Part shown: one piece after another, positions 10,784-31,098 of the stretch | How the letters are laid out: every line of letters starts with the position of its first letter | Numbering within the stretch: position 1 is the first letter of the stretch | Assembly (NCBI GenBank): GCA_043723545.1 | Contig: JAYSNU010000072.1 | Coordinates: 1-31,098, forward strand | Length of the DNA stretch: 31,098 nucleotides | Origin: Candidatus Nomurabacteria bacterium | GTDB taxonomy: Bacteria; Patescibacteriota; Minisyncoccia; Phycocordibacterales; UBA9973 | Direction of reading: 5' to 3' | The notes under the pieces: generated by a model | Databases searched by the model: none | What the model saw: the letters and a program-made list of their open reading frames with translations, nothing else | Told to the model about the DNA's origin: nothing | Position numbers and translations under genes: made by a program

Positions 10784-11497
10784 TTATTTATTCAAATAAT
10801 GTCTAAGAGTATAAATCCAATCCTCGTCTATTTGATCACTGGCTTCTTTTTGAGCAAGTAGCCATTCGAGATAACCTCTATCCATAGCAGCTACTTTTTC
10901 TATCTTTTTGCCTAAATGTTTACCGAAGTTGAAAGTTTTTAGTATCGAAGGATGAGAAGAAATCTCTATCATTTGTTCTATTGCGCTATTGTCTTCAACG
11001 CCACTTTCATCTATTATTTTCTTTTTTAATCTTTCAAATAGTTGTTCGAGTACAAGTACATCACCTAATGCATCATGAGCAGTAGCGTCTATTTCTATAT
11101 CTAGAAGATAGCGAAGATATTGAAGATTGTATCTATCTATTTTGCCATCTTTGTCTAAATGCCTTGCGACTCGAAGAGTGCAAATAAATTTATTTGGCAC
11201 GATATCTTCTTTTTTGATAATCATCAAATCAAATGGTGCATTGTGAGCTACAACGACAGTATTCTTATCTTCGAAAAGTTTTTTTATTTTAGGAGCATCA
11301 GTTTCGGCGAAAGATTTTTTATCTTCTACCATTTTATTTGAGATATGATGAACAGCTGAAGCTTCAGGGGGGATTTTTACTGGAGGTTTATACATAGCAG
11401 AGAATTCTTCTTTTCCATTTTTATAAGCTATTTGGCATAAAAAGTCCTTTTCTGTGTTTCCAGTTGTTTCTGTATCAAAAAATATGATTTTATTCAT
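10784..11497 (-). CDS. DEDDh 3'-5' exonuclease (DnaQ/ExoX-like) with C-terminal FGKH module
   Basis: FFDTETTG, VAHNAPFD, AHDALGDV; C-terminal FNFGKHLGK...YLEWL. Confidence 0.88.
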   Translation of the reverse strand: MNKIIFFDTETTGNTEKDFLCQIAYKNGKEEFSAMYKPPVKIPPEASAVHHISNKMVEDKKSFAETDAPKIKKLFEDKNTVVVAHNAPFDLMIIKKEDIVPNKFICTLRVARHLDKDGKIDRYNLQYLRYLLDIEIDATAHDALGDVLVLEQLFERLKKKIIDESGVEDNSAIEQMIEISSHPSILKTFNFGKHLGKKIEKVAAMDRGYLEWLLAQKEASDQIDEDWIYTLRHYLNK

Positions 11498-15299: not shown

Positions 15300-15372
15300 G
15301 TTTTTTGTTTTCAACATATTTTGAACATATTCTCATTGTTTTTATAAAGGGTTGAAATGTATAATTATCTTA

Positions 15373-18300
15373 ATGAGTTCGGACCTATTTAAAGATAATA
15401 AGAAATATATCTCAGCCAAGGAAGCCAGCTCTTTGACTGGCTATTCCAGAGACTACATAGGTCAACTTGCAAGAGGTAATAAAATTGATTCAAAAAAAAT
15501 TCGAGGTGTTTGGTATGTGGAAGAAAAATCAATTCTTCAGTATAACGATTTTTCAATTGAGTTGGGGACACCTATTGTGCATGAACCAGTTTTAAAGAAA
15601 AATGCACTTGTTTCAGAAAATTTAGATAAAAAAATCTTAGAATCAAAATTTACCTCAGTTATTTTACCTAAACCATTTGTACCCACACTAATTCATTTAC
15701 CTCCCAAAACTCTTTGGCCAGAAATAAAAAAAACTTCTCTAAAGAAAAACATATCTTTATCTCAAAAATTATTATTAACTACTTTTGGGTTTTTAGTTTC
15801 TGTGGGAGTATTTTCTTTAATTGATATTAGCTCTTCTCTTAAACAGCTTGATGGGCCTAATTTGACCGCGAATGTTCTTAATGAAAATCCTTCTTATTTT
15901 GGGAAACTATCTGGCAATGTTATTGATGCTTTTTCTGATCTTTTGTTTCATTATTTTTATGGACCAGAAGTTGATTATACAAATGTGGCTGTAATCAAAC
16001 ATTCAACTAAACCTATTCCCACACCTGAGGTTGCAACAGTGATTACACCAGAACTAATAACAAAAACAAAAATAGAATATCCTAAAACTATAATTATTCG
16101 TGGACCCGCAGGACCCAAGGGATCTACAGGATCACGTGGATTAACTGGGCTACAAGGACTTAAGGGTGATGCTGGTATTCAAACATTTAATTCTACGAGT
16201 TCTTCACAACCTGCTTATATTCCAGTTTATTCTGCACCTATTGGAATTATTCAATCCAATCCTGCAACCAATTATTCTGGTGGCAGTTTGTTTTCGGCGA
16301 CAGATTTGTCTTCTCGTAATTTCAATACCACTAATGCAAATATTGGTTCTTTAAATGTTTCGGGAGATTCTATATTACAGGGAAATTTAACAACCATGGC
16401 GGGAATATCTTCTTCTGGAACGATTAATTTCTCTGGATTAACTGCCTCAAGAGGAGTTTTTACTGATGGTTCAAAAAATTTAACTTCGACTGGAATCCTC
16501 GGCGCTGATCAAGGCGGCACCGGTATTGCCAACAATGTCGCTTCAACTTTTACAATTTCCGGAAACTTCGGAACAACTTTTACAATCAGTGGTTCAACCG
16601 CTGTAACTCTTCCAACTTCTGGAACACTTTATGGCACGGCTACTGGCTCTATCACATCTCTGCAACTTGCAACATCACTATCTGATGAAACGGGAAGTGG
16701 TTTAGCAGTTTTCGGAACAAGTCCAACAATTTCCGGTCTAACATTAAGTGGCTTTACTCCTGGTTCAATGCTTTTTACCGGAACATCTGGTGTTGTAATT
16801 CAAGATAATGCAAATTTATTTTTTGATGATACAAATAATAGATTGGGAATCGGCACAACAACACCGCTTGCAGTATTTGATTTAAGACAAGGTGTAAATG
16901 GCGAAACTATGTTTTCTGGTCGAAGATTTACTGATGTTGCCCCATCTGGAGATTTCATTACCTACAACAATGCTGCCAATGACACTGCACTCTTTCGGGT
17001 AGATAATTCTGGAAATCTTTTTGCAGGAGGAATTTTAAATTCAGGAAGTCAAACTATCACTTCCACCTCCACTCCGCAATTTCGAGTGCAATATAATGCA
17101 TTAAATGAAAGTTCTCTTTCAGTATCTTCAGCTGGAGTTGCAACTTATGGTTTTAATGGCACCACACCTCGAGCTATCTGGACTCCACAATCAAACCTTA
17201 CAAATACTTTTACTTTTACTGATTCATCATCAAATCCAATTTTGAATATTGATACAACGAATCAAAGAGTCGGAATTGGGACTGCCACATCAAACACTTT
17301 CAAACTCGAAGTCGCAGGCAACATCGGACCAGAAGCAGATAACACTAGAGACCTAGGTGCAGTCGCGAAAAGATGGGCGAACTTATACGCGACTAATATA
17401 ACCGGTGCAATCACTCCAACCGGATTCACTCAAGGTTCAGTTGCCTTCGCTGGAGCTTCTGGTATGCTCTCTCAAGACAATGCGAATTTTTTTATTGATG
17501 ATACGAACAATACATTAGGTATCGGTAGTACACGTACAGGAGTTATCTCAGCAACTAATGCTCGTCTGTTGCTAAAAGGTAGTGGTGTAACTTCCGCTAC
17601 TTCTTCTTTTGATGTTCAAGATTCTACTGGCGCTTCGAATTTCTTTGTACGTGATGATGGCAACGTCGGCATCGGGACGACTGCACCAGCACAAAAATTG
17701 GATGTCGTGGGGAATATTCAATTTAATACAAATGGAGGGCAAGCTATACTTGTTTCAAATTATAAAGGAGCTAATTCTGATGGGAATAACTTATTTATTG
17801 GTGGAGGTGGGCAGAGTAGTATTGGAGAAGTTGGAGCTACTTATAAAGGCTCTTCCAACACCGCTAATGGATATGGTTCTCTCTTATCCAACACCACAGG
17901 ATATCAAAACACCGCTAATGGGGTTTATTCTCTCTACTCCAACACCACAGGGCTTAGCAACACCGCTAATGGATATGGTTCTCTCTACTCCAACACCACA
18001 GGAAATCAAAACACCGCTAATGGTTTTCTTTCTCTCGCCTCCAACACCACTGGCTCTTCCAACACCGCTAATGGATTTTATTCTCTCTACAACAACACCA
18101 CAGGATATCAAAACACCGCTAATGGATATGGTTCTCTCACCTTCAACACCACAGGGCTTAGCAACACCGCTAATGGATATTATTCTCTCTTATCCAACAC
18201 CACAGGAAATAACAACACCGCTAATGGGGTTTATTCTCTCTACTCCAACACCACAGGAGTTAACAACACCGCTAATGGATATGGTTCTCTCTATGACTTC

Positions 18301-21300
18301 AATGTTTCTGACGGCTCGGGTAACAATACAGCAATTGGTTATAACACTGGTAGAGGAATTGTAACTGGTATTAATAACACAATTCTCGGAGCTAATGTAA
18401 CTGGACTTTCTTCTACATTATCAAACAATATCATTATCGCTGATGGGTCGGGTAATCAAAGGATTAATGTTGACTCAAGCGGCAACGTCGGAATAGGTGT
18501 TACGAATCCGCTACATAAGTTAACTGTTGGTAATTCTTGGACAGGTACATCTCCTACAGTGATGACAGATGAATTTTCTAGCTTGGCAGGTTATTTGCCA
18601 AGCATGAGTATAAATGCTTCTACTACAAACTCCACTCTTTATGTGAAATCAATCGGCCTAAATCTTCATAATAATGATTTAACTTTAGGTGTGCGTACAC
18701 CAGCAATATCATTTTCTCAACGAGTAAATGCTAATTATTCTGCTTCTATTGGAGCGATTGATGTTATGTCTGGTGGTGGCAAGAATTCTGATTGGATTTC
18801 TGGTTCTATGATTTTTAGCACTGCTGGTTCACAAGATTATGGTCTAAAGGAAAGAATGCGAATTACTTCTCTTGGCTATGTAGGTATAGGGAAAACTGAT
18901 CCAAATAATAAGTTAATGGTTGGGTTAAATACTACTAATGGTCTTGTTTTATTAAATGGTAATGGGGGGTTAGACCAAACCTTTCCGACTGTTAATTTTA
19001 CGACTAGTTCAAGTAATACAACGAATTATGTATATAGTGTTGGTTTAAACCTTCTTAATGATGACATTACAGCCGGTGGTCGTTCGGCCGCTCTTACATT
19101 TGGTAAGAAAACAACACAGTTTTCTGATACATTAGGAGCAATAGATGCAGTTGATGTTGGTGTTGGAGTAAATGAAGATTGGCATGGGGGAGATATGGTA
19201 TTTCATACTGCAAACAAAGAAACATTTGGCATCACAGAAAAAATGAGAATCACAAGCACCGGCAACGTCGGAATAGGTGTTACGAATCCGTCCGAAAAAC
19301 TCACGGTGGTGGGTGGAGACATTTCAGTCGATGGTGGTAAGGCTATCATGCTTGTCCACGGTAGTCTGAACAATAGCATTTTTAGAAATAATGGTACTGG
19401 GAATACAACTATTTCATCTCCTTCAAATAGCGGCGGAATATCTTTTATACTTAATGGAGATCCCAATATCGAAATTATGAGAGCTTATAGTGGCGCTTTT
19501 CAATCAGGGGTCGGCATCGGGATTACAAACCCATCAGCAAAATTACACATTGTTCAAAATCCTATTAATAATGGAATAAATCCAGGTATTATTTATGTTG
19601 GTGCTGTGCATAATAGCCAAACACTTTCAACTGAAATTTCATCTGTCAATATCACAACTGCGGGCAGGCAATGGGCGACAGGTAATATTTCTATGGAGAG
19701 AGAAGTATTAATTACTCAACCTACTTATTCATTCGTCGGAGCATCAACAATCACTGATGCGGCCACAATGAGCATCGTTGGCGCACCGATCAATGGCACG
19801 AATGCGACCTTGACGAACACTTATGGACTTCTCATCCAGGCAGGAGCCGTTTCAACTGCGATCAACAGCTACGGCCTTACAGTTAATGCTCAAACAGGAG
19901 CGACGAATAATTACGTTGCCACATTCTTGGGTGGCAACGTCGGCATCGGGACGACGGGGCCGGGGGCGAAATTGCAGATTAATACTGCAACAGGTGTTAA
20001 TTTTCAAGATGCTATAAAATTAGTCAAGGATGGAGGATATGGAGAAACTTCAATACAGAACTATTACTCAACTATTAATAATTTTGGAATGGGTTTTCAT
20101 ACTGATGCCGGAACGGTAATGGTAATAAATAACAGCGGCAACGTCGGTATAGGTACGATAAATCCAGGCACAAAATTGGTAGTTACAGGAACAGGCGCAG
20201 CCATTGGGGGAGGATTCATAGCCTCGGCCCCACTCTTCGTCAATGATTCAACACTAAGTACTCGGGGTGTCGCCATAGGTTATGATGCAACTCTTGAAGC
20301 CGGCTTTATTCAAGCGGGTAAGCAAGGTGTGGCATATGAACCACTTTTATTGAATCCAAACGCCGGAAACGTCGGCATTGGGACGACGTTTCCGGTGTCA
20401 AAATTTCACGTATCAGGCGGCGGTGCAACTGGAAGCGTCGATAGCAGTACACTCTTGATGATTGACGGAACTGGTGACGGCATCGTCGCTCAGCTCAACA
20501 ATGCAAACGCAGCAAATGCCGAAACACTTCTCGCATTCTCATACCGCAATGCGGGTAATGCATCAGGAGCCGTTCCTGCTGCGATCGGATACAAAATAGA
20601 CTCTGACGGATTTACAGGGCAGACCAAGGGCGCGCTCGTATTCAAAACTCGAGGAGGTACGACCGGTGTCGCCCCAACTGAACGTATGCGCATTGACTCA
20701 AGTGGCAACGTCGGCATCGGGACGACGACACCGGCGATGAAGCTTTCCGTTGTTCAAGGTGCTTCAGGTGACCTTTATCCAACAAACACGCAGGCGATAT
20801 TCGAATATAACGCGAATGGTGGAATAGTTGTCGCAGTACCTGATGCGAATGCCGGGGGATTGTATTTTCCGAAGTCCACTGACGCATATTATTCCGGCAT
20901 TGAAAGAAGCACATCTAATCTGAACCTGAGGAATAACGGCTCGACGCGATTAACGATCGACTCTAGTGGCAACGTCGGCATCGGGACGACGGTGCCGGGG
21001 GCGAAGCTGGATGCTGTCTCGTCGACTGGAAGTGCGGGGAGATTTTCTGGATATACTTACACTAGGGTTGCAGCAGATGCCACATCGGGAACAATTCAAA
21101 TTGGTAGCAACACTAACTATTCAGGTTATATCGACTACGGTGGTAGTAGCGCCCCATCTGGATCAGTAAATTTGACATTCTCGAACTCGTACGATTCTCC
21201 GGCTGATGGTTTTTTGTTCCGTGGACGTACCAGTGGCACTGCCGTTAACGCAATGATGATTCAAGGCAACGGCAACGTCGGTATTGGGTTGACGAATCCA

Positions 21301-22932
21301 AGTGATAAGTTAGTAGTTTATGGAATTAATCCCGTTATTAGATTAACTGATTCTTCTCAAGGAAATACTTCTTTCCTCCAACAATTGGACAATGCAAATG
21401 GAGCAGCTTTGAGAATATATGACGGCACACTTTACAGTACTTATTTCAAGGGTGGCAACGTCGGCATCGGGACGACGAATCCGGGGGCGAAATTAGAAGT
21501 TAATGGATTTACGAAAATTACATCTGGCTCAGTCGATTCTAATTGGAATGAACAATTATTGGTGTTAGGCAATGGTACGTATGACCCAAAAATTGTTCTT
21601 GGTTCAAATAATGGTTATCGTTGGAGCATTAGAAATGCCGACCCATCTTCCAGTGGTCAGCTATCGTTTAGATATGAAGAAGGTTCTTTAGACGCAATGA
21701 CAATATCAAGAAACGGCAACGTCGGGATTGGGACGACGGCACCAAGTCAAAAATTAGAAGTAATGGGTGATGTTCAGATTAACGGTGGTTTACACCTTGA
21801 TGCGGGTGCTGGAGCCACCTCTCCTTTATCTGGGATTATACTTGCTGGTAAATATGAAGGAGCTTTATATTCAAATGGAGGTATTCGTGCTAATGGATTT
21901 CAACAAAATTCTCCATATGATGGTGGAGTTTCATTACAAAGAAATTACTATAATGGTGCTGCATACGTTTATCAAGATGTATTAAATGTTACTGGCGCAG
22001 GCAACGTCGGGATAGGGACGACGGCGCCGGGCGCACCACTCGAGGTCAAGGGTACGAGCACAGGTGGCACTATCGCCAAGTTCACCGATCTCAACACCAC
22101 CGGCTGTACCCTCGCGACTGGTGGCACAATTTCTTGTAGTTCAGATCAAAGATTGAAGAAGAATGTCACGGATATAAGTTATGGGTTGGATACAGTGATG
22201 TCATTACACCCAGTACTCTTTAATTGGAATTATGAAAATGATGGTACAACAAAAAATCTTGGTTTCATCGCCCAAGAAGTCGAAATTGTAGTCCCTAAAT
22301 TAGTTTCTACTGATGATGGTGGAATGAAATCTTTAAATACTACAGCGATAGTTCCTATTTTAACGAAATCGATTCAAGAATTAAATTTAAATATGAAATC
22401 AATATCAGAACCTATACCCACAATCGGTTCTTTTGGAGATAAATTTTTTACAAATTTATTTGCTCGACTTATAGCATGGTTCGCTAATAGTGCAAATGGG
22501 ATCGGAGAATTTTTCGCAAAGAAAGCTACACTCGAAGAAGTGTGTTTGAAAGATGCTACCGGCACATCTTGCTATAACAGAACTCAGCTAGATACTTTGC
22601 TTGCCAGCGCCGTGACTTCCGCGCAAGGCGCGCAAGGCGAAACCTTACGCACAAAACCAGAGGTTTCTCCAGTAGTAGATACGATAGCTCCGGTCATTAC
22701 ATTGACAGGTGAAACAAATATTACCCTCAATGTTGGGGATACATATACTGAAGCAGGGGCAACTGCCACTGACAATGTAGATACAAATGTTGCTGTGGTG
22801 ATTTCTGGAACAGTTGATACGACTGTCGCTGGTACATATATTGTTAATTATAATGCGCAAGACACAGCAGGGAACAAAGCAATAGAAGTTATCAGAACAA
22901 TTAATGTCACCGTCCTTGGTGGGACCCCTTAA
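15373..22932 (+). CDS. Giant membrane-anchored fibre/adhesin-like protein: N-terminal HTH, TM, short collagen-like stretch, GNVGIGT-module stalk, peptidase S74 chaperone, C-terminal DUF5011-like Ig domain
   Basis: YISAKEASSLTGYSRDYIGQLAR (HTH); LLLTTFGFLVSVGVFSLI (TM); GPAGPKGSTGSRGLTG; many GNVGIGTT repeats; SDQRLKKNV...GFIAQEV (S74); DTIAPVITLTG...TATDNVD...GTYIVNY (DUF5011-like). TATAAT 15360-15365 favours ATG 15373. Confidence 0.88.
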   Translation: MSSDLFKDNKKYISAKEASSLTGYSRDYIGQLARGNKIDSKKIRGVWYVEEKSILQYNDFSIELGTPIVHEPVLKKNALVSENLDKKILESKFTSVILPKPFVPTLIHLPPKTLWPEIKKTSLKKNISLSQKLLLTTFGFLVSVGVFSLIDISSSLKQLDGPNLTANVLNENPSYFGKLSGNVIDAFSDLLFHYFYGPEVDYTNVAVIKHSTKPIPTPEVATVITPELITKTKIEYPKTIIIRGPAGPKGSTGSRGLTGLQGLKGDAGIQTFNSTSSSQPAYIPVYSAPIGIIQSNPATNYSGGSLFSATDLSSRNFNTTNANIGSLNVSGDSILQGNLTTMAGISSSGTINFSGLTASRGVFTDGSKNLTSTGILGADQGGTGIANNVASTFTISGNFGTTFTISGSTAVTLPTSGTLYGTATGSITSLQLATSLSDETGSGLAVFGTSPTISGLTLSGFTPGSMLFTGTSGVVIQDNANLFFDDTNNRLGIGTTTPLAVFDLRQGVNGETMFSGRRFTDVAPSGDFITYNNAANDTALFRVDNSGNLFAGGILNSGSQTITSTSTPQFRVQYNALNESSLSVSSAGVATYGFNGTTPRAIWTPQSNLTNTFTFTDSSSNPILNIDTTNQRVGIGTATSNTFKLEVAGNIGPEADNTRDLGAVAKRWANLYATNITGAITPTGFTQGSVAFAGASGMLSQDNANFFIDDTNNTLGIGSTRTGVISATNARLLLKGSGVTSATSSFDVQDSTGASNFFVRDDGNVGIGTTAPAQKLDVVGNIQFNTNGGQAILVSNYKGANSDGNNLFIGGGGQSSIGEVGATYKGSSNTANGYGSLLSNTTGYQNTANGVYSLYSNTTGLSNTANGYGSLYSNTTGNQNTANGFLSLASNTTGSSNTANGFYSLYNNTTGYQNTANGYGSLTFNTTGLSNTANGYYSLLSNTTGNNNTANGVYSLYSNTTGVNNTANGYGSLYDFNVSDGSGNNTAIGYNTGRGIVTGINNTILGANVTGLSSTLSNNIIIADGSGNQRINVDSSGNVGIGVTNPLHKLTVGNSWTGTSPTVMTDEFSSLAGYLPSMSINASTTNSTLYVKSIGLNLHNNDLTLGVRTPAISFSQRVNANYSASIGAIDVMSGGGKNSDWISGSMIFSTAGSQDYGLKERMRITSLGYVGIGKTDPNNKLMVGLNTTNGLVLLNGNGGLDQTFPTVNFTTSSSNTTNYVYSVGLNLLNDDITAGGRSAALTFGKKTTQFSDTLGAIDAVDVGVGVNEDWHGGDMVFHTANKETFGITEKMRITSTGNVGIGVTNPSEKLTVVGGDISVDGGKAIMLVHGSLNNSIFRNNGTGNTTISSPSNSGGISFILNGDPNIEIMRAYSGAFQSGVGIGITNPSAKLHIVQNPINNGINPGIIYVGAVHNSQTLSTEISSVNITTAGRQWATGNISMEREVLITQPTYSFVGASTITDAATMSIVGAPINGTNATLTNTYGLLIQAGAVSTAINSYGLTVNAQTGATNNYVATFLGGNVGIGTTGPGAKLQINTATGVNFQDAIKLVKDGGYGETSIQNYYSTINNFGMGFHTDAGTVMVINNSGNVGIGTINPGTKLVVTGTGAAIGGGFIASAPLFVNDSTLSTRGVAIGYDATLEAGFIQAGKQGVAYEPLLLNPNAGNVGIGTTFPVSKFHVSGGGATGSVDSSTLLMIDGTGDGIVAQLNNANAANAETLLAFSYRNAGNASGAVPAAIGYKIDSDGFTGQTKGALVFKTRGGTTGVAPTERMRIDSSGNVGIGTTTPAMKLSVVQGASGDLYPTNTQAIFEYNANGGIVVAVPDANAGGLYFPKSTDAYYSGIERSTSNLNLRNNGSTRLTIDSSGNVGIGTTVPGAKLDAVSSTGSAGRFSGYTYTRVAADATSGTIQIGSNTNYSGYIDYGGSSAPSGSVNLTFSNSYDSPADGFLFRGRTSGTAVNAMMIQGNGNVGIGLTNPSDKLVVYGINPVIRLTDSSQGNTSFLQQLDNANGAALRIYDGTLYSTYFKGGNVGIGTTNPGAKLEVNGFTKITSGSVDSNWNEQLLVLGNGTYDPKIVLGSNNGYRWSIRNADPSSSGQLSFRYEEGSLDAMTISRNGNVGIGTTAPSQKLEVMGDVQINGGLHLDAGAGATSPLSGIILAGKYEGALYSNGGIRANGFQQNSPYDGGVSLQRNYYNGAAYVYQDVLNVTGAGNVGIGTTAPGAPLEVKGTSTGGTIAKFTDLNTTGCTLATGGTISCSSDQRLKKNVTDISYGLDTVMSLHPVLFNWNYENDGTTKNLGFIAQEVEIVVPKLVSTDDGGMKSLNTTAIVPILTKSIQELNLNMKSISEPIPTIGSFGDKFFTNLFARLIAWFANSANGIGEFFAKKATLEEVCLKDATGTSCYNRTQLDTLLASAVTSAQGAQGETLRTKPEVSPVVDTIAPVITLTGETNITLNVGDTYTEAGATATDNVDTNVAVVISGTVDTTVAGTYIVNYNAQDTAGNKAIEVIRTINVTVLGGTP
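17659..22023 (+). repeat. Dispersed in-frame GC-rich junction motif GGCAACGTCGG (12 copies)
   Basis: Starts at 17659, 18481, 19261, 19933, 20137, 20365 (GGA variant), 20704, 20968, 21271, 21454, 21715, 22000. Confidence 0.92.
17857..18294 (+). repeat. Coding tandem repeat, 51 nt / 17 aa (NTANGxxSLxxNTTGxx), 8 full copies plus one partial
   Basis: AACACCGCTAATGG recurs every 51 nt from 17857 to 18265. Confidence 0.95.
22621..22651 (-). repeat. REP family A copy (plus half-site) in-frame within giant CDS
   Basis: 22629-22651 matches the reverse complement of the REP at 21/23, preceded by half-site GCGCAAGGC; encodes AQGAQGETLR. Confidence 0.8.
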
Positions 22933-22945
22933 AATAAAACACAAA

Positions 22946-22983
22946 TGCGCAAGGTTTCGCCTTGCGCAAAAATGCCTTGCGCA
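22946..22983 (+). repeat. REP family A copy plus half-site, downstream of RAYT
   Basis: TGCGCAAGGTTTCGCCTTGCGCA 22946-22968; GCCTTGCGCA 22974-22983. Confidence 0.9.
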
Positions 22984-22989
22984 AAAAAA

Positions 22990-23649
22990 CTATTCCTTTG
23001 TAAAAGAAAGCCAGAATCTAATCATTTCTTTGAAATTAGTAGTATTTTCAAAATACTGAGGGAAAGCTCTCTCATTGATTATCACATTTTCTGTCCTGTT
23101 TAAATTGATATATTTTCCGTAGCTTGAATATTGATATTCTGTTAAAAATTTTTCTGCTTTCGTTTGATTTTTTATTCCATTTTTTTTCCAAGTTGCATCA
23201 ATTAATTTGATTGGATTTAGATGTATGTATGAATAAATATATTTTAAATAGTTATCATCATCTAAGTGTTCTGCTTTAAAAACACCTTGAAACAAAACCC
23301 CATTACGTTCGTATTTTTTATTGAAATACATAGTGTAAGCAGTCGTTAATTTTTGCATAAATAAACTTATACTATTTTCTGTTTTTTCTTTTAATAAAAG
23401 ATGGAAATGATTTGGCATTAAGCAATATGCTCCAATTTCTACCAAATTTTCTCCACGATCTTTCTCAAACAAATCTTTAAATGATTGTCTTCGCGTGTCG
23501 ATACGGATAGGTTCTTTAGAATTAGCAAGATAAAGAAGTATGATAAATCTTTCGTAATCATTTTTTGTAATAAATATTCTTCTTTTATCGGTTCCTCTAT
23601 TATAAATATGATAAAATTCATTAATTGAAAAAGTTATTGGACGTGACAT
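22990..23649 (-). mobile_element. REP-associated tyrosine transposase (RAYT, Y1 HUH family)
   Basis: YHIYNRG, AYCLMPNHFHLL (HUH), YFNKKYER.G.LFQG, YIHLNP (catalytic Tyr), YSSY; identical palindromes on both sides. Confidence 0.92.
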
Positions 23650-23677: not shown

Positions 23678-23700
23678 TGCGCAAGGTTTCGCCTTGCGCA
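23678..23700 (+). repeat. REP family A copy upstream of RAYT
   Basis: TGCGCAAGGTTTCGCCTTGCGCA; stem extends to 11 bp (23676-23702). Confidence 0.9.
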
Positions 23701-23740
23701 TAGAAATAATTTTTGAAGAGAATATGTTAAAATGAGCGTT

Positions 23741-25210
23741 ATGAAGAAAAAATATTATCCGACAATAGGACTCGAAATACATGCAGAATTAAAGACACAA
23801 ACAAAGATGTTTTGTGCTTGCAAGAATGACCCTGACGAAGAAAAACCCAACAAAAACGTTTGTCCTGTATGTATGGCTCACCCCGGTGCATTGCCAGTAA
23901 TAAACAAACAAGCGGTAGAAAATGTCATTAAAGTCGGTCTTGCTTTGGGCTCCACTATCGCCAACTTTTCAGAATTTGATAGAAAAAATTATTTTTATCC
24001 AGATATACCGAAGGGTTATCAGATTTCGCAATATAAATATCCAATAGTTTCTGGTGGAGCTTTGGCAAATATGGACATTACTCGTATTCACTTGGAAGAA
24101 GACACAGGCAATAACAAACACCTAGATATAGATAAATCTTCCCCTACCCCCGGGGTAGGGGAAGAGGGATATTCTCTGATTGATTTTAATCGTGCTGGAG
24201 TGCCTTTGATGGAACTTGTAACTGAAGCGCATACCTTTGATACGGCGGAAGAAGCTGCAAAAGTTGCTTCCAATTTTGCTAAAGAATATCAATTACTTCT
24301 TTGGTATCTTGGTGTTTCCGAAGCAAATATGGAGAAAGGTGAAATGCGCGTAGAAGCGAATGTTTCTATTTCACCAGATAAAGATAAAAAGTGGAATGAA
24401 TATGTAGAAGTTAAAAATTTGAATTCTTTCCGTAGTGTTGAGCGAGCTATCAAATTTGAGGTAGAAAGAATGGTAGAACTTTTTGAAACAGGGCATGAGT
24501 CTGAAATAGTTAAAGAAACTCGAGGCTTTGATGAATCTAAACAGAAAACATTTTCCCAAAGAAGAAAAGAGTCTAGTCATGATTATAGATATTTCCCTGA
24601 CCCTGATTTGCCAAAAATGAAATTACATAGTGCATTTGATTTGGAAAAAATGGAGAAAGAATTACCAGAACTTCCTGTGGCCAAGCGGGCACGATATAAG
24701 AATGATTTTGGAATTAAAAATGAAGATATTGAAGCGTACATAAATGATATGACTCTCGGTGTATGGTTTGAGAATATTGCAAGAATTCTTGATAACAAAG
24801 AGAAAATAAAAATTGCCTCCAACTACATCACAACAGATTTTATTGGTTTAAAGAAAAATAATAAAGAGGTAAACATGCCAAGTGCCAAGAATATGGCAGA
24901 ACTCGCCTCGATGATTATGGAAGGAATGATAAGTTCTCGCGGAGCGAAGGACATCTTAGCTATGATTGTAGTGAAAGATCAAGCCCCAATGAAAATTGCT
25001 CTTGAAAAAGATTTGTTACAAAAGAATGATGTAGGTGTATTAAAAGAAATTGCACAAAAAATTATTGATGCAAATGAAAAAGTTGTAGCTGATTATAAGG
25101 GTGGTAAAGAACAAGCTTTAATGTCACTCGTGGGTCAAATTATGAAAGAAACGAAGGGAAGTGCTAATCCAGAAGTAGCTAGGAAGACTTTAATAGATTT
25201 GCTAAAATAG
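23741..25210 (+). CDS. gatB: Asp/Glu-tRNA amidotransferase subunit B
   Basis: IGLEIHAEL, FDRKNYFYPD.PKGYQISQ, HLEED, NRAGVPL.E, DYRYFPDPDL, GQIMK. Confidence 0.97.
   Translation: MKKKYYPTIGLEIHAELKTQTKMFCACKNDPDEEKPNKNVCPVCMAHPGALPVINKQAVENVIKVGLALGSTIANFSEFDRKNYFYPDIPKGYQISQYKYPIVSGGALANMDITRIHLEEDTGNNKHLDIDKSSPTPGVGEEGYSLIDFNRAGVPLMELVTEAHTFDTAEEAAKVASNFAKEYQLLLWYLGVSEANMEKGEMRVEANVSISPDKDKKWNEYVEVKNLNSFRSVERAIKFEVERMVELFETGHESEIVKETRGFDESKQKTFSQRRKESSHDYRYFPDPDLPKMKLHSAFDLEKMEKELPELPVAKRARYKNDFGIKNEDIEAYINDMTLGVWFENIARILDNKEKIKIASNYITTDFIGLKKNNKEVNMPSAKNMAELASMIMEGMISSRGAKDILAMIVVKDQAPMKIALEKDLLQKNDVGVLKEIAQKIIDANEKVVADYKGGKEQALMSLVGQIMKETKGSANPEVARKTLIDLLK
24137..24165. repeat. Perfect 14-bp inverted repeat in-frame within gatB
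   Basis: TCTTCCCCTACCCC-C-GGGGTAGGGGAAGA, encoding SSPTPGVGEE. Confidence 0.85.
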
Positions 25211-26739: not shown

Positions 26740-28458
26740 ATGAAAGACGAAATAAAAAAGATATTTAAAGGTGATGTGGAAGATGGTGAAGAGACACTTT
26801 TGAAATACTCACATGATGCGAGTATTTTCGATATTCGGCCGAAGGTTGTGGTTTTTCCGAAAGATTCACAAGATGTACAGAATTTAGTGAAGTGGGTGAA
26901 TGAAAATAAAGAAAAATACGAAGGTCTTTCAATTACTGCACGTTCTGCGGGAACAGACATGTCTGGTGGAGCAGTGGGGGAATCTATTATTATGGATTTC
27001 ACTCGTTATATGAATAAGTTGATAGATTTTAATGTTGGAGCGATGTCTATTACAGTTCAACCTGGAATGTTTTATCGAGATTTTGAGAAAATAACATTAG
27101 ATAAAAGCCTTATTTTACCGTGTTTTACAGCATCAAAGACAATAAATGCGATGGGTGGAATGTTTGGAAATAATTCAGCAGGTGAGAGAACTTTGAAATA
27201 TGGTAAGACTGAAGATTATATTTTAGAAACAAAAATTGTTTTTGAAGATGGTGTTGAAAGAATTGTGAAACCAGTTTTCGTTAGTGAAATTTCTAAACAG
27301 GAGAAAATGTATCGTGACGTTTATGCTTTGTTTAAAAATAATGAAGAAGAGATAAAAGAGGCAAAACCGAATGTCACAAAAAATTCTTCCGGTTATTATA
27401 TTTGGAATGTGGTGTATCAGATTGCAAAGAATTCTCCCAGCGGAAGGTTCCATCCCCTGGATGGAGGAAAGCAGGAGAATTCTTTGCAATCTGAATTCAT
27501 TTTTGATTTAAATAAATTGTTAGTCGGTTCACAAGGAACTCTTGGGATAGCGACGGAAATTACTTTTAAACTTGTTCTTGAGCCTAAATATACTCGACTG
27601 GTTGTTATATTTTTACGAGATATGAATATAGTACCGAACTTGGTGAATCATATCTTGAAATTTAAACCACAATCCCTTGAATCTTATGATGATAAAACAT
27701 TTCTTTTAGTTCTCAAATATATTAAAGATTTTGCGAAGCTTTTGGGTCTTAAGAATCTTTTTAAACTTGGTTTTTCTTTTTGGCCCGAGGCGCTTATGAC
27801 TCTACGACATGGTTTTCCCAAACTTGTCCTTCTTATTGAATTTACAGGAAGTACACAAGAAGAAGCGGATAAACAAGCGAAAATCGCTTTGAAAGATTTG
27901 GAAACCATTCAGGGTATTGGTATCCGTTTGACTAAAGACGAATTTGAAATGAAAAAGTATTGGACCATACGTCACGAGGCTTTTAATCTTATTCGTTATC
28001 ATTTGAAAAAAGTTAAGTCTAAACCTTTTATTGATGATGTAATAGTTCGCCCAGAAAAATTACCAGAATTTATTCCCGCTCTTTATAAAATTCTTGGAGA
28101 ATATAAAAACAGGATGACATTTGCTATTGGTGGACATTCTGGTGATGGAAATATGCATATATATACTCTTGTAAATCCGAAAGACCCAAATCTGAAAGAG
28201 ATGATTATAGATGTAGCAGATAGAGTATATGATTTAGTTATTAAATTGGGTGGGTCAATTACGGCTGAACACAATGATGGCCTTATTCGTACACCTTATT
28301 TAAATAAGATGTATAGTTCTCATATGATTCAAATTTTTAGTGAAATTAAGCAAATTTTTGATAAAAATAATATCTTTAATCCAGGCAAGAAGGTGGCTTC
28401 GTCTGATGGTCAAGGCACCAAAAAATATCTGACTTCTCACATTACGATTGAGCATTAA
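26740..28458 (+). CDS. FAD-binding oxidoreductase (GlcD/D-lactate dehydrogenase-like)
   Basis: ARSAGTDMSG, GGMFGNNSAG, VGSQGTLG, GHSGDGNMH, SITAEHNDG, IFNPGK. Confidence 0.9.
   Translation: MKDEIKKIFKGDVEDGEETLLKYSHDASIFDIRPKVVVFPKDSQDVQNLVKWVNENKEKYEGLSITARSAGTDMSGGAVGESIIMDFTRYMNKLIDFNVGAMSITVQPGMFYRDFEKITLDKSLILPCFTASKTINAMGGMFGNNSAGERTLKYGKTEDYILETKIVFEDGVERIVKPVFVSEISKQEKMYRDVYALFKNNEEEIKEAKPNVTKNSSGYYIWNVVYQIAKNSPSGRFHPLDGGKQENSLQSEFIFDLNKLLVGSQGTLGIATEITFKLVLEPKYTRLVVIFLRDMNIVPNLVNHILKFKPQSLESYDDKTFLLVLKYIKDFAKLLGLKNLFKLGFSFWPEALMTLRHGFPKLVLLIEFTGSTQEEADKQAKIALKDLETIQGIGIRLTKDEFEMKKYWTIRHEAFNLIRYHLKKVKSKPFIDDVIVRPEKLPEFIPALYKILGEYKNRMTFAIGGHSGDGNMHIYTLVNPKDPNLKEMIIDVADRVYDLVIKLGGSITAEHNDGLIRTPYLNKMYSSHMIQIFSEIKQIFDKNNIFNPGKKVASSDGQGTKKYLTSHITIEH
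27417..27494. repeat. Family B core inside a perfect 21-bp inverted repeat, in-frame in the oxidoreductase gene
   Basis: Arms TCAGATTGCAAAGAATTCTCC 27417-27437 and its exact reverse complement 27474-27494; core CGGAAGGTTCCATC-N5-GATGGAGGAAAG 27441-27471. Confidence 0.9.
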
Positions 28459-28494
28459 TTTGCTTTTTTAAAATTTTTCTATATAATTGCATTT

Positions 28495-29160
28495 ATGTTT
28501 TCAATCAAAGCTAAAAAGAGAGATGTAGGAGCTGATTCTACTGAATTACGAAAAAAAGGAGAAATCCCTGCTGTTTTTTATGGTGCAAAAAATCCATCTA
28601 CTTCTATAACAATTTCTAATATTGAATTTAAAAAGATTTGGCTTAAAGCTGGAGAATCTTCGACTGTTGCTATAGCTATGGAGGATGGTAAAAATGTTGA
28701 TGTTCTTATACATGATGTTCAAGTTGATCCTGTTACTGATGAACCAACCCATGTAGACTTTTTAGTTATAGATATGAATAAGAAAATCAAAGTTCATGTA
28801 GAACTTGCTTATGAAGGCGTATCCGAAGCTGTAAAATCAGGTCTCGGAACACTTGTTAAGGTTCTTCATGAAGTTGAAATAGAAGCACTGCCGAAAGATT
28901 TACCACATACTTTGACTGTTGATATTTCTAAGTTAGTTACTGTTCAAGATCAAGTTTTTATCTCAGATATTAAATTACCACAAGGTGTGGAGATAGTTAC
29001 AAAATCTCACAATGTTGTTTGTTCTATTGCCTTACAAGTAGAAGAAAAGGAAGAGGTAACTACTCCGGTTGACCTATCTGCTATCGAAGTTGAAAAGAAA
29101 GGTAAGAAAGAAGAAGAAGGTGCAGAGAGTGCTACTCCAGCCCCTGAAGAGAAGAAATAA
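28495..29160 (+). CDS. rplY: 50S ribosomal protein L25/Ctc
   Basis: IPAVFYG, VLIHDVQVDPV..EPTHVDF, EVEIEALP.DLP, acidic tail. Confidence 0.95.
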   Translation: MFSIKAKKRDVGADSTELRKKGEIPAVFYGAKNPSTSITISNIEFKKIWLKAGESSTVAIAMEDGKNVDVLIHDVQVDPVTDEPTHVDFLVIDMNKKIKVHVELAYEGVSEAVKSGLGTLVKVLHEVEIEALPKDLPHTLTVDISKLVTVQDQVFISDIKLPQGVEIVTKSHNVVCSIALQVEEKEEVTTPVDLSAIEVEKKGKKEEEGAESATPAPEEKK

Positions 29161-29198
29161 TCTTCTAAATTCATGTATTTTGTGTTAGAATAAGAGTT

Positions 29199-30557
29199 AT
29201 GACAAGAAAGAAAGTCATAACTTTTTTTGTTTTTATGTTCATAATTGTAAGTACTATGGGAACAACGAAAGTCTCTGCTTTTGATTGTTTAACTTTAACC
29301 ACAGCCTCAAATCAATCTGATAAGGATTATTGCAGAACCGAACTTACTCAAATAGAATCTCAGTTGGCAGATTTATTGGCTAAACAAAAAGAACAACAAA
29401 AACAGACAGGAACGTTAAAGGGTGATGTTGATTATCTTACTAGTCAAATCAATACTTTGAAAACAAAGATAAAGGCACGAGCCCTTGCTATAGCGCAACT
29501 CAAAGTAAATATTACAGAGAAAGTAAGTAGGATAAAATCTCTCACTAGTAAAATAGATAGAGAGCATGAATCTCTTGCACAATTGTTGCGTAATACAAAT
29601 GATTTTGATAATGAGAATTTAGTACATTTGATTTTATCTGATGATAGTGTGTCTCAATTTTATAGTGATTTGGAATCATATGATTCTATCAAGAAAGCTG
29701 TTAAAGCTTCTGTCGATGTAATTAATGGTGTAAAAACAGAAACAGAAGTTCAGAAGAAGGATCTTGAGAAAAAACAAAATGCCGAAACAGACGCCAAAGC
29801 AGAGCTTGAAAGTGCTCAGAAAACTGTGGCAAAATCAGAAGCGGACAAAAAACAACTTTTAGCTATTTCAAAAAATAAAGAAATTGAATATCAGAAATTA
29901 GCCGCGGAAAAAAAGGCGAGAGCAGATAAAATCCGAAGTGCATTGTTCGCTTTGGCTGGTATTTCTACAAAAATTGAATTCGGCACAGCTCTTAGATATG
30001 CAAATGAAGTTCGAGATCAAACGAGTATTGATCCAGCATTTTTACTTGCGATACTTACTCAAGAAAGTAATTTGGGTTCAAATGTGGGGCAGTGTTATCT
30101 TTCTGATATTATGACTGGTTCTGGAGTTGGTAAAAATACTGGTATTAATTTTTCAAATGTTATGAAACCAACACGTGATGTGGAACCATTTATGGAGATA
30201 ACTAATGCTCTTGGTTTCAATGCATTTAATACAGCTGTTTCTTGTCCTATTGCTGGGGTTGCTGGTTGGGGTGGTGCTATGGGACCCGCACAATTTATTC
30301 CTTCAACATGGAAGCTTTTTGCCGATCGTTTAAAATCTGCACTTGGCCACTATGCTAATCCATGGTCACCAGAAGATGCGTTTATGGCTTCAGGAATGTA
30401 TCTTACTGATTTAGGATCCAGGGGTACAAGCGTAAGTGCTCAGAATAAAGCCGCATGTAGATATTATGGTTCTGGTGGGTCATCATGTTCTTATAGTCGT
30501 AGTGTTCAGAAATTAAAATCTACTATTCAATCCAACATTGACTTGCTTTCAAGCTAA
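29199..30557 (+). CDS. Secreted coiled-coil protein with C-terminal lytic murein transglycosylase domain
   Basis: Signal peptide, long coiled coil, LAILTQESNLG, GAMGPAQFIPSTW. Confidence 0.85.
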   Translation: MTRKKVITFFVFMFIIVSTMGTTKVSAFDCLTLTTASNQSDKDYCRTELTQIESQLADLLAKQKEQQKQTGTLKGDVDYLTSQINTLKTKIKARALAIAQLKVNITEKVSRIKSLTSKIDREHESLAQLLRNTNDFDNENLVHLILSDDSVSQFYSDLESYDSIKKAVKASVDVINGVKTETEVQKKDLEKKQNAETDAKAELESAQKTVAKSEADKKQLLAISKNKEIEYQKLAAEKKARADKIRSALFALAGISTKIEFGTALRYANEVRDQTSIDPAFLLAILTQESNLGSNVGQCYLSDIMTGSGVGKNTGINFSNVMKPTRDVEPFMEITNALGFNAFNTAVSCPIAGVAGWGGAMGPAQFIPSTWKLFADRLKSALGHYANPWSPEDAFMASGMYLTDLGSRGTSVSAQNKAACRYYGSGGSSCSYSRSVQKLKSTIQSNIDLLSS

Positions 30558-30580
30558 AATCGTGATAATCTGTTTGAGTT

Positions 30581-30808
30581 ATGAAAAAAGATATACATCC
30601 AAAATTTGATTTGAAAACAAAAGCAACCTGCGCATGCGGAGCGGTATTTGAAGTTGGTTCTACTATGGGAGATATAAAAATGGAAATTTGTTCACAATGT
30701 CACCCTTTCTATACTGGTAATGAAAAGATCATGGACACAGCTGGACGTGTTGATAGATTCAATAAACGTAAAGCAGCAACTCTCTTAAAGACTAAAGCTA
30801 AAAAATAA
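30581..30808 (+). CDS. rpmE: 50S ribosomal protein L31 (Zn-binding type)
   Basis: MKKDIHP...CACG...[12 protein letters not shown]...DTAGRVDRF. Confidence 0.96.
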
Positions 30809-30815
30809 GCAAAAT

Positions 30816-30895
30816 AAAGGGGTGAAAATAATTATGTAGCCGGAAGGTTCCATCTTTTAGATGGAGGAAAGGCAAATAATTATTTTCACCCCTTT
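30816..30895. repeat. Family B core inside a perfect 20-bp inverted repeat, intergenic (may also act as terminator)
   Basis: Arms AAAGGGGTGAAAATAATTAT 30816-30835 and its exact reverse complement 30876-30895; core 30841-30871 is 27/31 identical to 27441-27471. Confidence 0.9.
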
Positions 30896-30924: not shown

Positions 30925-31098
30925 ATGGATTTTGATTTAAATGAATTAAAAAAGGACCACAATACTAATTATTTAGCGGGAATGCTAGAGAAGCTTTTGC
31001 GTGAAGAAGCAGAAGTTAGAGAGATGTTAGATAGTGATGAAACTCTTCATGAAATGGCTGCGAAGGAACTAAAATATATACAAGAACAAAAAGATAGT
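30925..31098 (+). CDS. prfA: Probable peptide chain release factor 1, N-terminus (3' truncated by window)
   Basis: Open frame MDFDLNELKK...DETLHEMAAKELKYIQEQ; conserved position after rpmE. Only 58 codons visible. Confidence 0.6.
   Translation, partial: MDFDLNELKKDHNTNYLAGMLEKLLREEAEVREMLDSDETLHEMAAKELKYIQEQKDS

Follow-up and report, generated by a model that had tools for sequence, protein, structure and literature searches.

The window analysed here is a 31,098-nt stretch of DNA from a Candidatus Nomurabacteria bacterium (GenBank contig JAYSNU010000072.1). It carries two long hairpins, one inside the gene of a flavin adenine dinucleotide (FAD)-linked oxidase and the other in the spacer between rpmE and prfA. 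The first-pass annotation of the window had described a 31-bp core at both loci, with differences confined to its loop, enclosed by perfect inverted repeats with unrelated arms. Direct reading agrees with this description: the pattern CGGAAGGTTCCATC-N5-GATGGAGGAAAG is present at 27441-27471 (copy 1) and 30841-30871 (copy 2), and the two copies differ only at four of the five loop bases. The perfect inverted repeats measure 21 bp in copy 1 (27417-27437/27474-27494) and 20 bp in copy 2 (30816-30835/30876-30895), and the arm pairs of the two copies are unrelated in sequence. The 78-bp unit also keeps the frame of the oxidase open reading frame (26740-28458), as had been stated. The two hairpins are confirmed as two copies of one repeat family, designated family A, and not as chance resemblances.

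No core match was found in 100 dinucleotide-preserving shuffles of the window, compared with the two observed, and a control with the reversed pattern gave 0 matches in those genomes that were searched with the stricter pattern. Folded as single-stranded DNA, copy 1 reaches -28.5 kcal/mol (z = -8.9) and copy 2 reaches -24.6 kcal/mol (z = -8.1). Copy 1 is bridged without a gap by an independent contig (X4 record 20, 26900-27765), and copy 2 is bridged in the same way by two contigs (X3 record 15 and X4 record 27, over 30816-30895), all from other samples of the same sediment study. Since contigs assembled independently from other samples cross both hairpins, an assembly artefact is ruled out and the inverted repeats are real. 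Logan contigs from three runs end at 27424-27426, i.e., inside the left arm of copy 1; perfect palindromes fragment de Bruijn assemblies, which may account for part of the 95-contig state of this genome.

The family A alignment comprises 61 non-redundant copies from assemblies of the candidate phyla radiation (CPR) and contains no gap anywhere; information content was computed on 62 candidate copies, one of which was later dropped as a chance match. The conserved unit consists of 16 + 28 + 16 nt (~60 nt), and beyond it the information content is only ~0.1-0.3 bits. The core described in the first-pass annotation is therefore retained, but its extent is not, as the 16 nt on each side of a 28-nt core are also conserved. 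Because conservation reaches this far, the inner 9-10 bp of each arm (AAAGAATTCT and AATAATTAT) belong to the unit, and the locus-specific character ascribed to the arms holds for their distal part only. The consensus of the 61 copies reads aaGAATTyTG-nnn-GS, GGAAGGTTCC-NNN-CGAAG-NNN-GGAGKAA, wSC-nrAr-rAATTyTt, i.e., an AAGAATTYT box, a 3-bp helix, an asymmetric internal loop (5' GGAAGG and 3' GKAA), a covarying inner stem, and a mirror-image box. The corresponding features of the window copies are listed in Table 1.

Table 1. Features of the two hairpin loci, in nucleotide positions of the window.
Feature	Position	Strand	Basis
FAD-linked oxidase gene, host of copy 1 (572 amino acids; element at residues ~226-252)	26740..28458	+	Pfam FAD_binding_4 and FAD-oxidase_C
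Copy 1, whole hairpin (78 nt, sense to host gene, in frame, 26 codons)	27417..27494	+	Direct reading, DNA fold, bridging contig
Copy 1, conserved 60-nt unit (left box AAAGAATTCTCCCAGC, 16 nt; core, 28 nt; right box AGCAGGAGAATTCTTT, 16 nt)	27426..27485	+	Information content, 61-copy alignment
Copy 1, core (GGAAGG internal-loop strand; inner stem 27448-27455/27459-27466; 3-nt apex; GGAA)	27442..27469	+	Pair counts, 61 copies
Copy 1, short helix P2	27440-27441/27471-27472	+	Pair counts, 61 copies
Copy 1, 5'-arm locus-specific extension TCAGATTGC (pairs with 27486-27494)	27417..27425	+	Columns unconserved yet paired
Copy 1, 3'-arm locus-specific extension GCAATCTGA	27486..27494	+	Columns unconserved yet paired
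rpmE (ribosomal protein L31), upstream of copy 2	30581..30808	+	Open reading frame list; orthologous locus has Ribosomal_L31, then PCRF/RF-1
Copy 2, whole hairpin (80 nt, 20-bp perfect outer stem, rpmE-prfA spacer, TTTT after it)	30816..30895	+	Direct reading, DNA fold, two bridging contigs
Copy 2, conserved 60-nt unit (core 30842-30869)	30826..30885	+	61-copy alignment
prfA, 5' part (peptide chain release factor 1), downstream of copy 2	30925..31098	+	Open reading frame list; orthologue has PCRF/RF-1

Pair counts were made on one pre-specified structure. Across the 61 copies, 90.1% of the pair cells are paired, compared with 65.3% in shuffles and 43-59% when the partners are slid, and all 24 outer-stem pairs and all three P2 pairs vary on both sides. 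The inner stem is 99.4% paired with four covarying pairs, whereas the TTCC/GGAG base and the GGAAGG/GKAA internal loop are invariant. The apex of the inner stem is mostly C-GAA-G, the very stable mini-hairpin of d(GCGAAGC) type, a motif of DNA and not a stable RNA loop. Beyond the unit, every one of the 61 copies carries a locus-specific paired extension of 5-23 further bp; the stems end at a median of 27 nt from the core, compared with 17 nt for left and right arms taken from different copies. Even between species with a protein identity of only 50-60%, the unit hardly changes, and AATT is nearly invariant in both boxes.

The wobble pairs are strand-specific. Pair 45-55 is G:T in 30 of the 61 copies, pair 41-59 is always T:G, and the arm extensions contain 21 G:T against 7 A:C pairs, which identifies the strand carrying GGAAGG as the better-folding one. 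The window copies carry A:T at 45-55, and both of their strands fold about equally. Most copies are antisense to the gene in which they lie, so the folding strand is not the mRNA.

Family A comprises at least 61 non-redundant copies, all in CPR assemblies, and the assemblies with matches are named Candidatus Nomurabacteria, Paceibacterota, or other Patescibacteria. The genome that holds the window (607 kb, 34% G+C, 97% complete) has exactly 11 copies, and no cargo-bearing or split version of family A was found in it. Within the genus, true copies occur in a patchy manner in ~9 of 61 genomes, with 11, 7, 7, and 4 in the richest and single copies elsewhere (the genus-wide tallies of this element and of the two enzyme families discussed below take in one unpublished genome, G083, on which no individual claim depends); no copy was found in 24 other families of the order, each represented by a single genome. 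The wide search covered one genome per prokaryotic species, and among the matches listed, the hairpin, boxes, and arms occur together only in CPR assemblies, whereas 50 pattern matches in other phyla had no hairpin. One match, in Lactobacillus, had a paired inner stem and was discarded as a coincidence. A phage origin was rejected, as 10 matches on viral contigs were without the full inner stem, boxes, and arms. GGAGGAA is present in 10 of the 11 copies of the window's genome and in 8 of the 50 copies elsewhere (Fisher p = 4.6e-6). This bias indicates that the copies of this genome form a lineage-specific subfamily, which arose by recent spread or by conversion of older copies and not by simple vertical inheritance.

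About 51 of the 61 copies lie inside long open frames (~37 antisense and ~14 sense), and 10 are intergenic. The host genes in the window's genome encode the FAD-linked oxidase, TypA/BipA, MnmA (twice), TGT, PheT, and a class I aminoacyl-tRNA synthetase; elsewhere they encode UvrA, UvrC, Dus, LigA, the CCA-adding enzyme, a DNA polymerase III delta'-like (HolB-like) protein, and another class I synthetase. Across species, family A is found repeatedly in one set of a dozen genes, and both orientations are found at MnmA site 1. Stop codons of the consensus, TGA in the left box and TAA in GGAGTAA, fall in two of the three sense frames and in none of the antisense frames. Given these positions, random insertion with loss of the interrupted genes yields a 1:3 ratio of sense to antisense copies, as observed, and since the open-frame filter explains the ratio, the element appears to be read through and not to be a motif of the host mRNA. 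Family A inserts are thus predicted to be translated as loops of housekeeping proteins. In the AlphaFold2 model of the window oxidase (predicted TM score 0.84), the per-residue confidence (pLDDT) falls below 50 only at residues 130-139, 145-149, and 231-248, and the last of these segments is the loop encoded by the element, placed between strands 225-227 and 253-255, i.e., a low-confidence insert in a confident fold. Copy 2, a stable hairpin followed by TTTT, occupies the expected site of a terminator and may act as one; the usual intergenic hairpins of this genome are long, perfect, and flanked by A/T (A-tract/T-tract).

Three further arrangements of copies were seen. Three copies of family A are present in an oxidase orthologue (G061:C8:28416-30335), where a distance of only 84 nt separates two oppositely oriented ones (L118 5420-5531). 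On contig C68 of the window's genome, inverted copies at 1011-1093 and 1766-1846 (L007) with near-identical arms flank efp (1163-1750), a layout that resembles a cassette bounded by inverted repeats or a terminator pair. An intergenic copy of the window's genome (C2:~11040-11136, L008) and its counterparts in two other species (L136 and L013) have TGTGGATAAC, a sequence resembling a DnaA box, immediately upstream, and the site may be close to a replication origin.

The origin of the arms was addressed by comparing filled sites with orthologues that have no insertion there, and the net length difference is given together with the hairpin length (net/hairpin, in nt). In 12 of the 17 comparisons, which represent 8 of the 10 sites, the net insertion is 48-66 nt for hairpins of 72-92 nt, a shortfall of 11-32 nt: TypA (63/74, on which all five relatives agree), UvrA (60/92, 60/82, and 57/84), UvrC (60/86), Dus (63/76 and 48/76), class I synthetase (66/78), LigA site 2 (57/74), the delta'-like (HolB-like) protein (54/78 and 66/88), and oxidase site 1 (63/78). 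As the gene is longer by only ~60 nt and the hairpin is longer than that, part of the stem is host sequence. The earlier suggestion that the flank is copied in inverted orientation is therefore supported for the family, but it is not shown at either of the two window loci. AATT is missing at six of eight empty sites, so the boxes belong to the unit and not to the target, and direct duplication of an AATT target is ruled out. No palindrome is present at the empty alleles of UvrA, UvrC, Dus, LigA site 2, and oxidase site 1, and the TypA relatives have only a weak 7+3-bp quasi-palindrome; apart from the latter, insertion into a pre-existing palindrome was not seen at the coding sites.

The side on which the native sequence lies was assessed by prefix/suffix alignment. 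Of 12 tests, 10 match the peptide of the empty allele to the arm located 3' of the GGAAGG strand, and all four independent sites with a margin of at least 8, as well as the single sense-oriented case, agree on the 3' arm. Pairs of arm-coded and native peptides are IQNLGKKN and IKNLAQEN in UvrA, EKSRLQN and EEVKLEN in UvrC, and NISGEV and NVGAM at oxidase site 1. These matches suggest that the native arm has a fixed polarity relative to the element.

Both window loci lie at places where hairpins of various kinds are found. In distant species, hairpins of other core families sit exactly at the position of copy 1 (oxidase site 2), where cores A, B, D, and E occur with similar arms; these arms (tCAGAwTnyAAArAATTC, coding ..NQxxKNS / NSLQS[DE]F) resemble those of the window copy. 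Such similarity is expected if one arm is old host sequence, but an exchange of cores inside a hairpin that persists could also produce it. With a long hairpin in all five relatives and in the closest metagenomic relative, and with different arms and a different center each time, the rpmE-prfA spacer is a hot spot of hairpin turnover in the position of a terminator; the spacer element of G018 contains a further, nested hairpin. Among the relatives examined, MnmA (two sites), TGT, PheT, the LeuS-like protein, and LigA also have a hairpin at the same loops with a core family that varies by species, and in one relative the LeuS-like allele is short.

In related species, no fewer than seven additional core families of hairpins were observed in frame at the same protein loops, e.g., CCGGCTTnACCCTTCCCGGAGTACCGGGTGGGACCCAC and GCGCCCTCGGAGACAnAGGACAGGGnACC, and another, CCCCAGCCCTCTCCTT-GTAAA-GGAGAGGGG, codes for PQPSPxKGEG (loci L037-L061 in the oxidase, L071-L075 in MnmA, L076-L080 in TGT, and L233-L242 in PheT and the LeuS-like protein). 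In the zinc-finger loop of LigA, the NAD-dependent DNA ligase, of the window's genome (contig C84:1314-3368), a GC-rich hairpin of ~100 nt from another family is located where other species have family A, and the regional fold there is -74.5 kcal/mol. A short GC-rich insert in GatB (23732-25210), DKSSPTPGVGEEGY at ~24137-24165, looks like a member of yet another small in-frame hairpin family.

The best explanation, which we regard as fairly probable when taken as a whole, is that family A is one of many small non-autonomous hairpin repeat families in Nomurabacteria/Paceibacteria (CPR) genomes and consists of a mobile hairpin unit of ~60 nt whose outer stem is built from host DNA by inverted copying. 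The unit would move, probably as single-stranded DNA, a form of handling suggested by wobble pairs that favor one strand, by an apex of the DNA mini-hairpin type, and by insertions that disregard the orientation of the gene. It would settle where it is tolerated, either in surface loops of proteins, where it would be translated and disordered, or at gene ends in the position of a terminator. The outer stem would not be carried along; the flank 3' of the GGAAGG strand would be kept, and the opposite side would become its reverse complement. This copying may take place by hairpin-primed fold-back synthesis or by template switching during replication, and the same process may keep the arms perfectly paired. 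Template switching between inverted repeats has been described (PMC8794818, PMC8604942, PMC13100816) as homogenizing and expanding the arms, inverting the spacers, and making perfect hairpins in one step.

The inverted copying could take two forms. In the first, the unit would be inserted, and template switching would subsequently overwrite its 5' flank with a reverse-complement copy of the 3' flank; in the second, the inverted copy would be made during insertion by hairpin-primed fold-back synthesis. The constant net insertion near 60 nt favors rewriting, whereas coupling to insertion is favored by the fixed polarity and by the finding that all copies have an extension. Insertion with later rewriting of the flank explains the data no less well than duplication in the course of insertion. 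A dedicated insertion of fixed polarity, in which an enzyme of CPR bacteria would join a module of ~42-60 nt as single-stranded DNA to a 3' end in the target and the fold would prime back-synthesis along the host strand, is a tentative possibility that we consider rather doubtful. If it were true, each event would duplicate at least 5-23 bp of one defined flank in inverted and not in direct orientation, which would be a transposition signature undescribed for any element class.

Several observations weigh against the inverted copying of host flanks. At the CCA-enzyme site the net/hairpin values are 81/88, 90/76, and 141/74, and one oxidase site 1 copy contains additional sequence (93/76). The window oxidase itself gives 75/78 at site 2: its five closest homologues (75-82% identity, 545-554 amino acids) read WNVV-[KR][DE][ND]-x-FDL and are without 75 of the 78 nt, and the DNA of the closest one has neither of the distal arm parts, both of which thus look new at this locus, so that the one-armed empty allele anticipated in the first-pass annotation is not seen there. 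The two efp-flanking copies share arms with compensated differences, which indicates that arms can sometimes be copied together with the core. The "empty" alleles come from species that are 50-87% identical in protein and are not polarized on a tree, so some may be deletion derivatives, and gaps in short loops rich in Lys and Asn can be placed only to within ~2 residues. Few independent sites underlie the polarity test (4/4, p about 0.06). A hairpin-less variant was not seen in the population, a point that counts weakly as the comparison was of contigs only.

On the same side of the balance, no enzyme could be linked to family A. The only Y1 transposase of the genome is of the REP-associated tyrosine transposase (RAYT) type, where REP denotes repetitive extragenic palindromic sequences, and is encoded in the window at 22990-23649 on the minus strand (Pfam Y1_Tnp, HUH motif HFHLLL). 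It is flanked by GC-rich REP hairpins other than family A, GCGCAAGG-TTTC-GCCTTGCGC, at ~22946-22983 and 23678-23700. RAYT-like Y1 genes occur in 48 of the 61 genomes of the genus (~0.5-0.9 Mb), with up to 10-11 matches each, and their number does not follow family A: G061 has seven copies of the element and no RAYT match, and G003 and G007 have 10-11 RAYT matches and no family A. Because its own REPs differ and the copy numbers are unrelated, RAYT is unsupported as the enzyme of family A. Reverse transcriptase is absent from the 97% complete genome of the window, and the correlation with RAYT or reverse transcriptase genes that had been proposed as a check is supported for neither. A small stand-alone GIY-YIG gene is present at contig C65:27980-28216, and such genes are found in 49 of the 61 genomes, up to six in each; no hairpin repeats flank this gene or four of its orthologues, and a close orthologue is present in four of the nine family A genomes compared with ~2 expected. 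With no flanking repeats and a weak co-occurrence, a link to this nuclease is likewise unsupported. As side observations, the gene of a 2526-amino-acid surface protein (15352-22932) ends with a related RAYT-REP copy (22621-22651) that is translated in its frame, and the RAYT count in the genus is far above the usual single copy.

It is unlikely that the whole hairpin, including its arms, is mobile in the manner of Rickettsia palindromic elements (RPEs) or MITEs (miniature inverted-repeat transposable elements), with arms that diverge fast and a pairing kept by selection or by arm-to-arm conversion. The extra length of the window oxidase copy (75 of 78 nt) and of the CCA-enzyme copy (81 of 88 nt), the shared and compensated arms around efp, and the diverged yet paired arms of same-site copies across species (PheT and the intergenic site by TGTGGATAAC) would all fit such a mode. 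However, it leaves the shortfall in 12 of the 17 comparisons unaccounted for, no family signal is left in the arm columns past 16 nt while the unit hardly varies from species to species, and the peptide of one arm matches native residues in UvrA and UvrC.

The alternative that the core targets the apex of existing palindromes, such as terminators or older hairpin elements, so that only the center is exchanged, is improbable as a general account. It draws on the different core families at the same positions (oxidase, MnmA at two sites, TGT, PheT, LeuS-like, LigA, and the rpmE-prfA spacer), on the similar arms across core families A, B, D, and E at oxidase site 2, on the nested hairpin of the G018 spacer, and on intergenic copies placed in A-tract/T-tract hairpins like the ordinary terminators of the genome; insertion sequences aiming at REP palindromes are known (PMC1525189). 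The empty coding alleles, on the other hand, have no palindrome at five sites and only the weak quasi-palindrome in TypA, and the first hairpin at a coding site is left unexplained. Apex targeting nevertheless probably contributes at intergenic and hot-spot sites.

A functional structured RNA displayed on sequence-free stems, with the internal loop as a protein-binding site or processing signal, would suit the strong covariation, the invariant asymmetric internal loop, and the tolerance of G:U on one strand, but is very improbable given that ~37 of the 51 intragenic copies are antisense to the only evident transcript, that stop-codon filtering alone predicts the orientation ratio, that distribution in the genus is patchy, that other families replace family A at the same sites, that Rfam offers no match, and that the apex is a DNA mini-hairpin motif. 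The suggestion of the first-pass annotation that an RNA motif is carried on interchangeable stems as an mRNA element is not supported, for the first and the fifth of these reasons. At the gathering threshold, Rfam 15 finds only a tRNA elsewhere in the window and no match to the hairpins, and at a permissive threshold around the hairpins, only generic microRNA-precursor (long-hairpin) models appear, far below threshold.

Among known systems, the closest in behavior are the RPEs, which Ogata et al. reportedly described in 2000 and 2002. RPEs are hairpin repeats that are translated in frame within housekeeping genes as extra surface loops; they form several families in a reduced genome and have no transposase of their own. 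Their copies are ~100-150 bp long and alike over the whole length. Family A is similarly small, in frame, apparently translated, multi-family, found in a reduced genome, and without its own transposase, but what its copies share is confined to 60 nt in the center, the outer stem differs from locus to locus and is in part of host origin, and the phylum is CPR; the likeness is one of behavior. The term "protein-coding palindromic" appears in PMC1779305 and PMC3733652.

Like the REP/REPIN-RAYT systems, family A consists of short strand-specific DNA hairpins that spread within genomes. Palindromes of the REP/RAYT type, which are imperfect and 20-40 nt long, are tagged at one end with GTAG or CGTC (PMC3733652), whereas neither tag is present in the 61-copy consensus and GTAG occurs only in the variable small loop of a few copies; moreover, the arms are conserved in REPINs and the center in family A. 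MITEs are also short, non-autonomous, and foldable with inverted ends, but their ends are element-specific and accompanied by direct target duplications, whereas the ends of family A are locus-specific. No direct repeat flanks the family A hairpins, and the only repeated flank motif is AATT, which is itself palindromic.

Inverted repeats made by template switching (PMC8794818, PMC8604942, PMC13100816, and PMC5453318) are reverse complements of adjacent sequence with perfect stems, which resembles the host-derived, perfectly paired arms of family A and its two orientations at one site. The known events need no mobile sequence, whereas family A has the 60-nt unit at its center, an extension in all cases, and a native arm apparently on a fixed side. 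Ssn is a small single-domain GIY-YIG nuclease that cuts hairpin repeats (NTS/SRM) in single-stranded DNA, and these repeats are dispersed, 20-50 nt in length, with an unimportant loop sequence and an extendable stem (PMC11893778). Small GIY-YIG genes are numerous in the genus of the window, as noted above; however, the family A consensus does not contain that of the SRM (HGTCWY...), no repeats surround the small GIY-YIG gene or four orthologues, and nuclease activity here is putative. A full-text literature search gave no description of palindromic in-frame elements in CPR/Nomurabacteria, nor of inverted target duplications, and an outer stem copied backwards from the host appears to be absent from published repeat families.

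For annotation and assembly, these hairpins call for caution, as de Bruijn contigs break within them. Family A may provide a natural system for fold-back or template-switch DNA synthesis and a source of new protein loops and terminator-like hairpins, and its features, as read from the DNA, point to a putative activity in CPR bacteria that recognizes single-stranded DNA. If the proposed explanation is true, the essential proteins of the smallest known bacterial genomes would be continually remodeled by tiny hairpin repeats that recruit host coding sequence, and families of such repeats would replace one another at the same protein loops.

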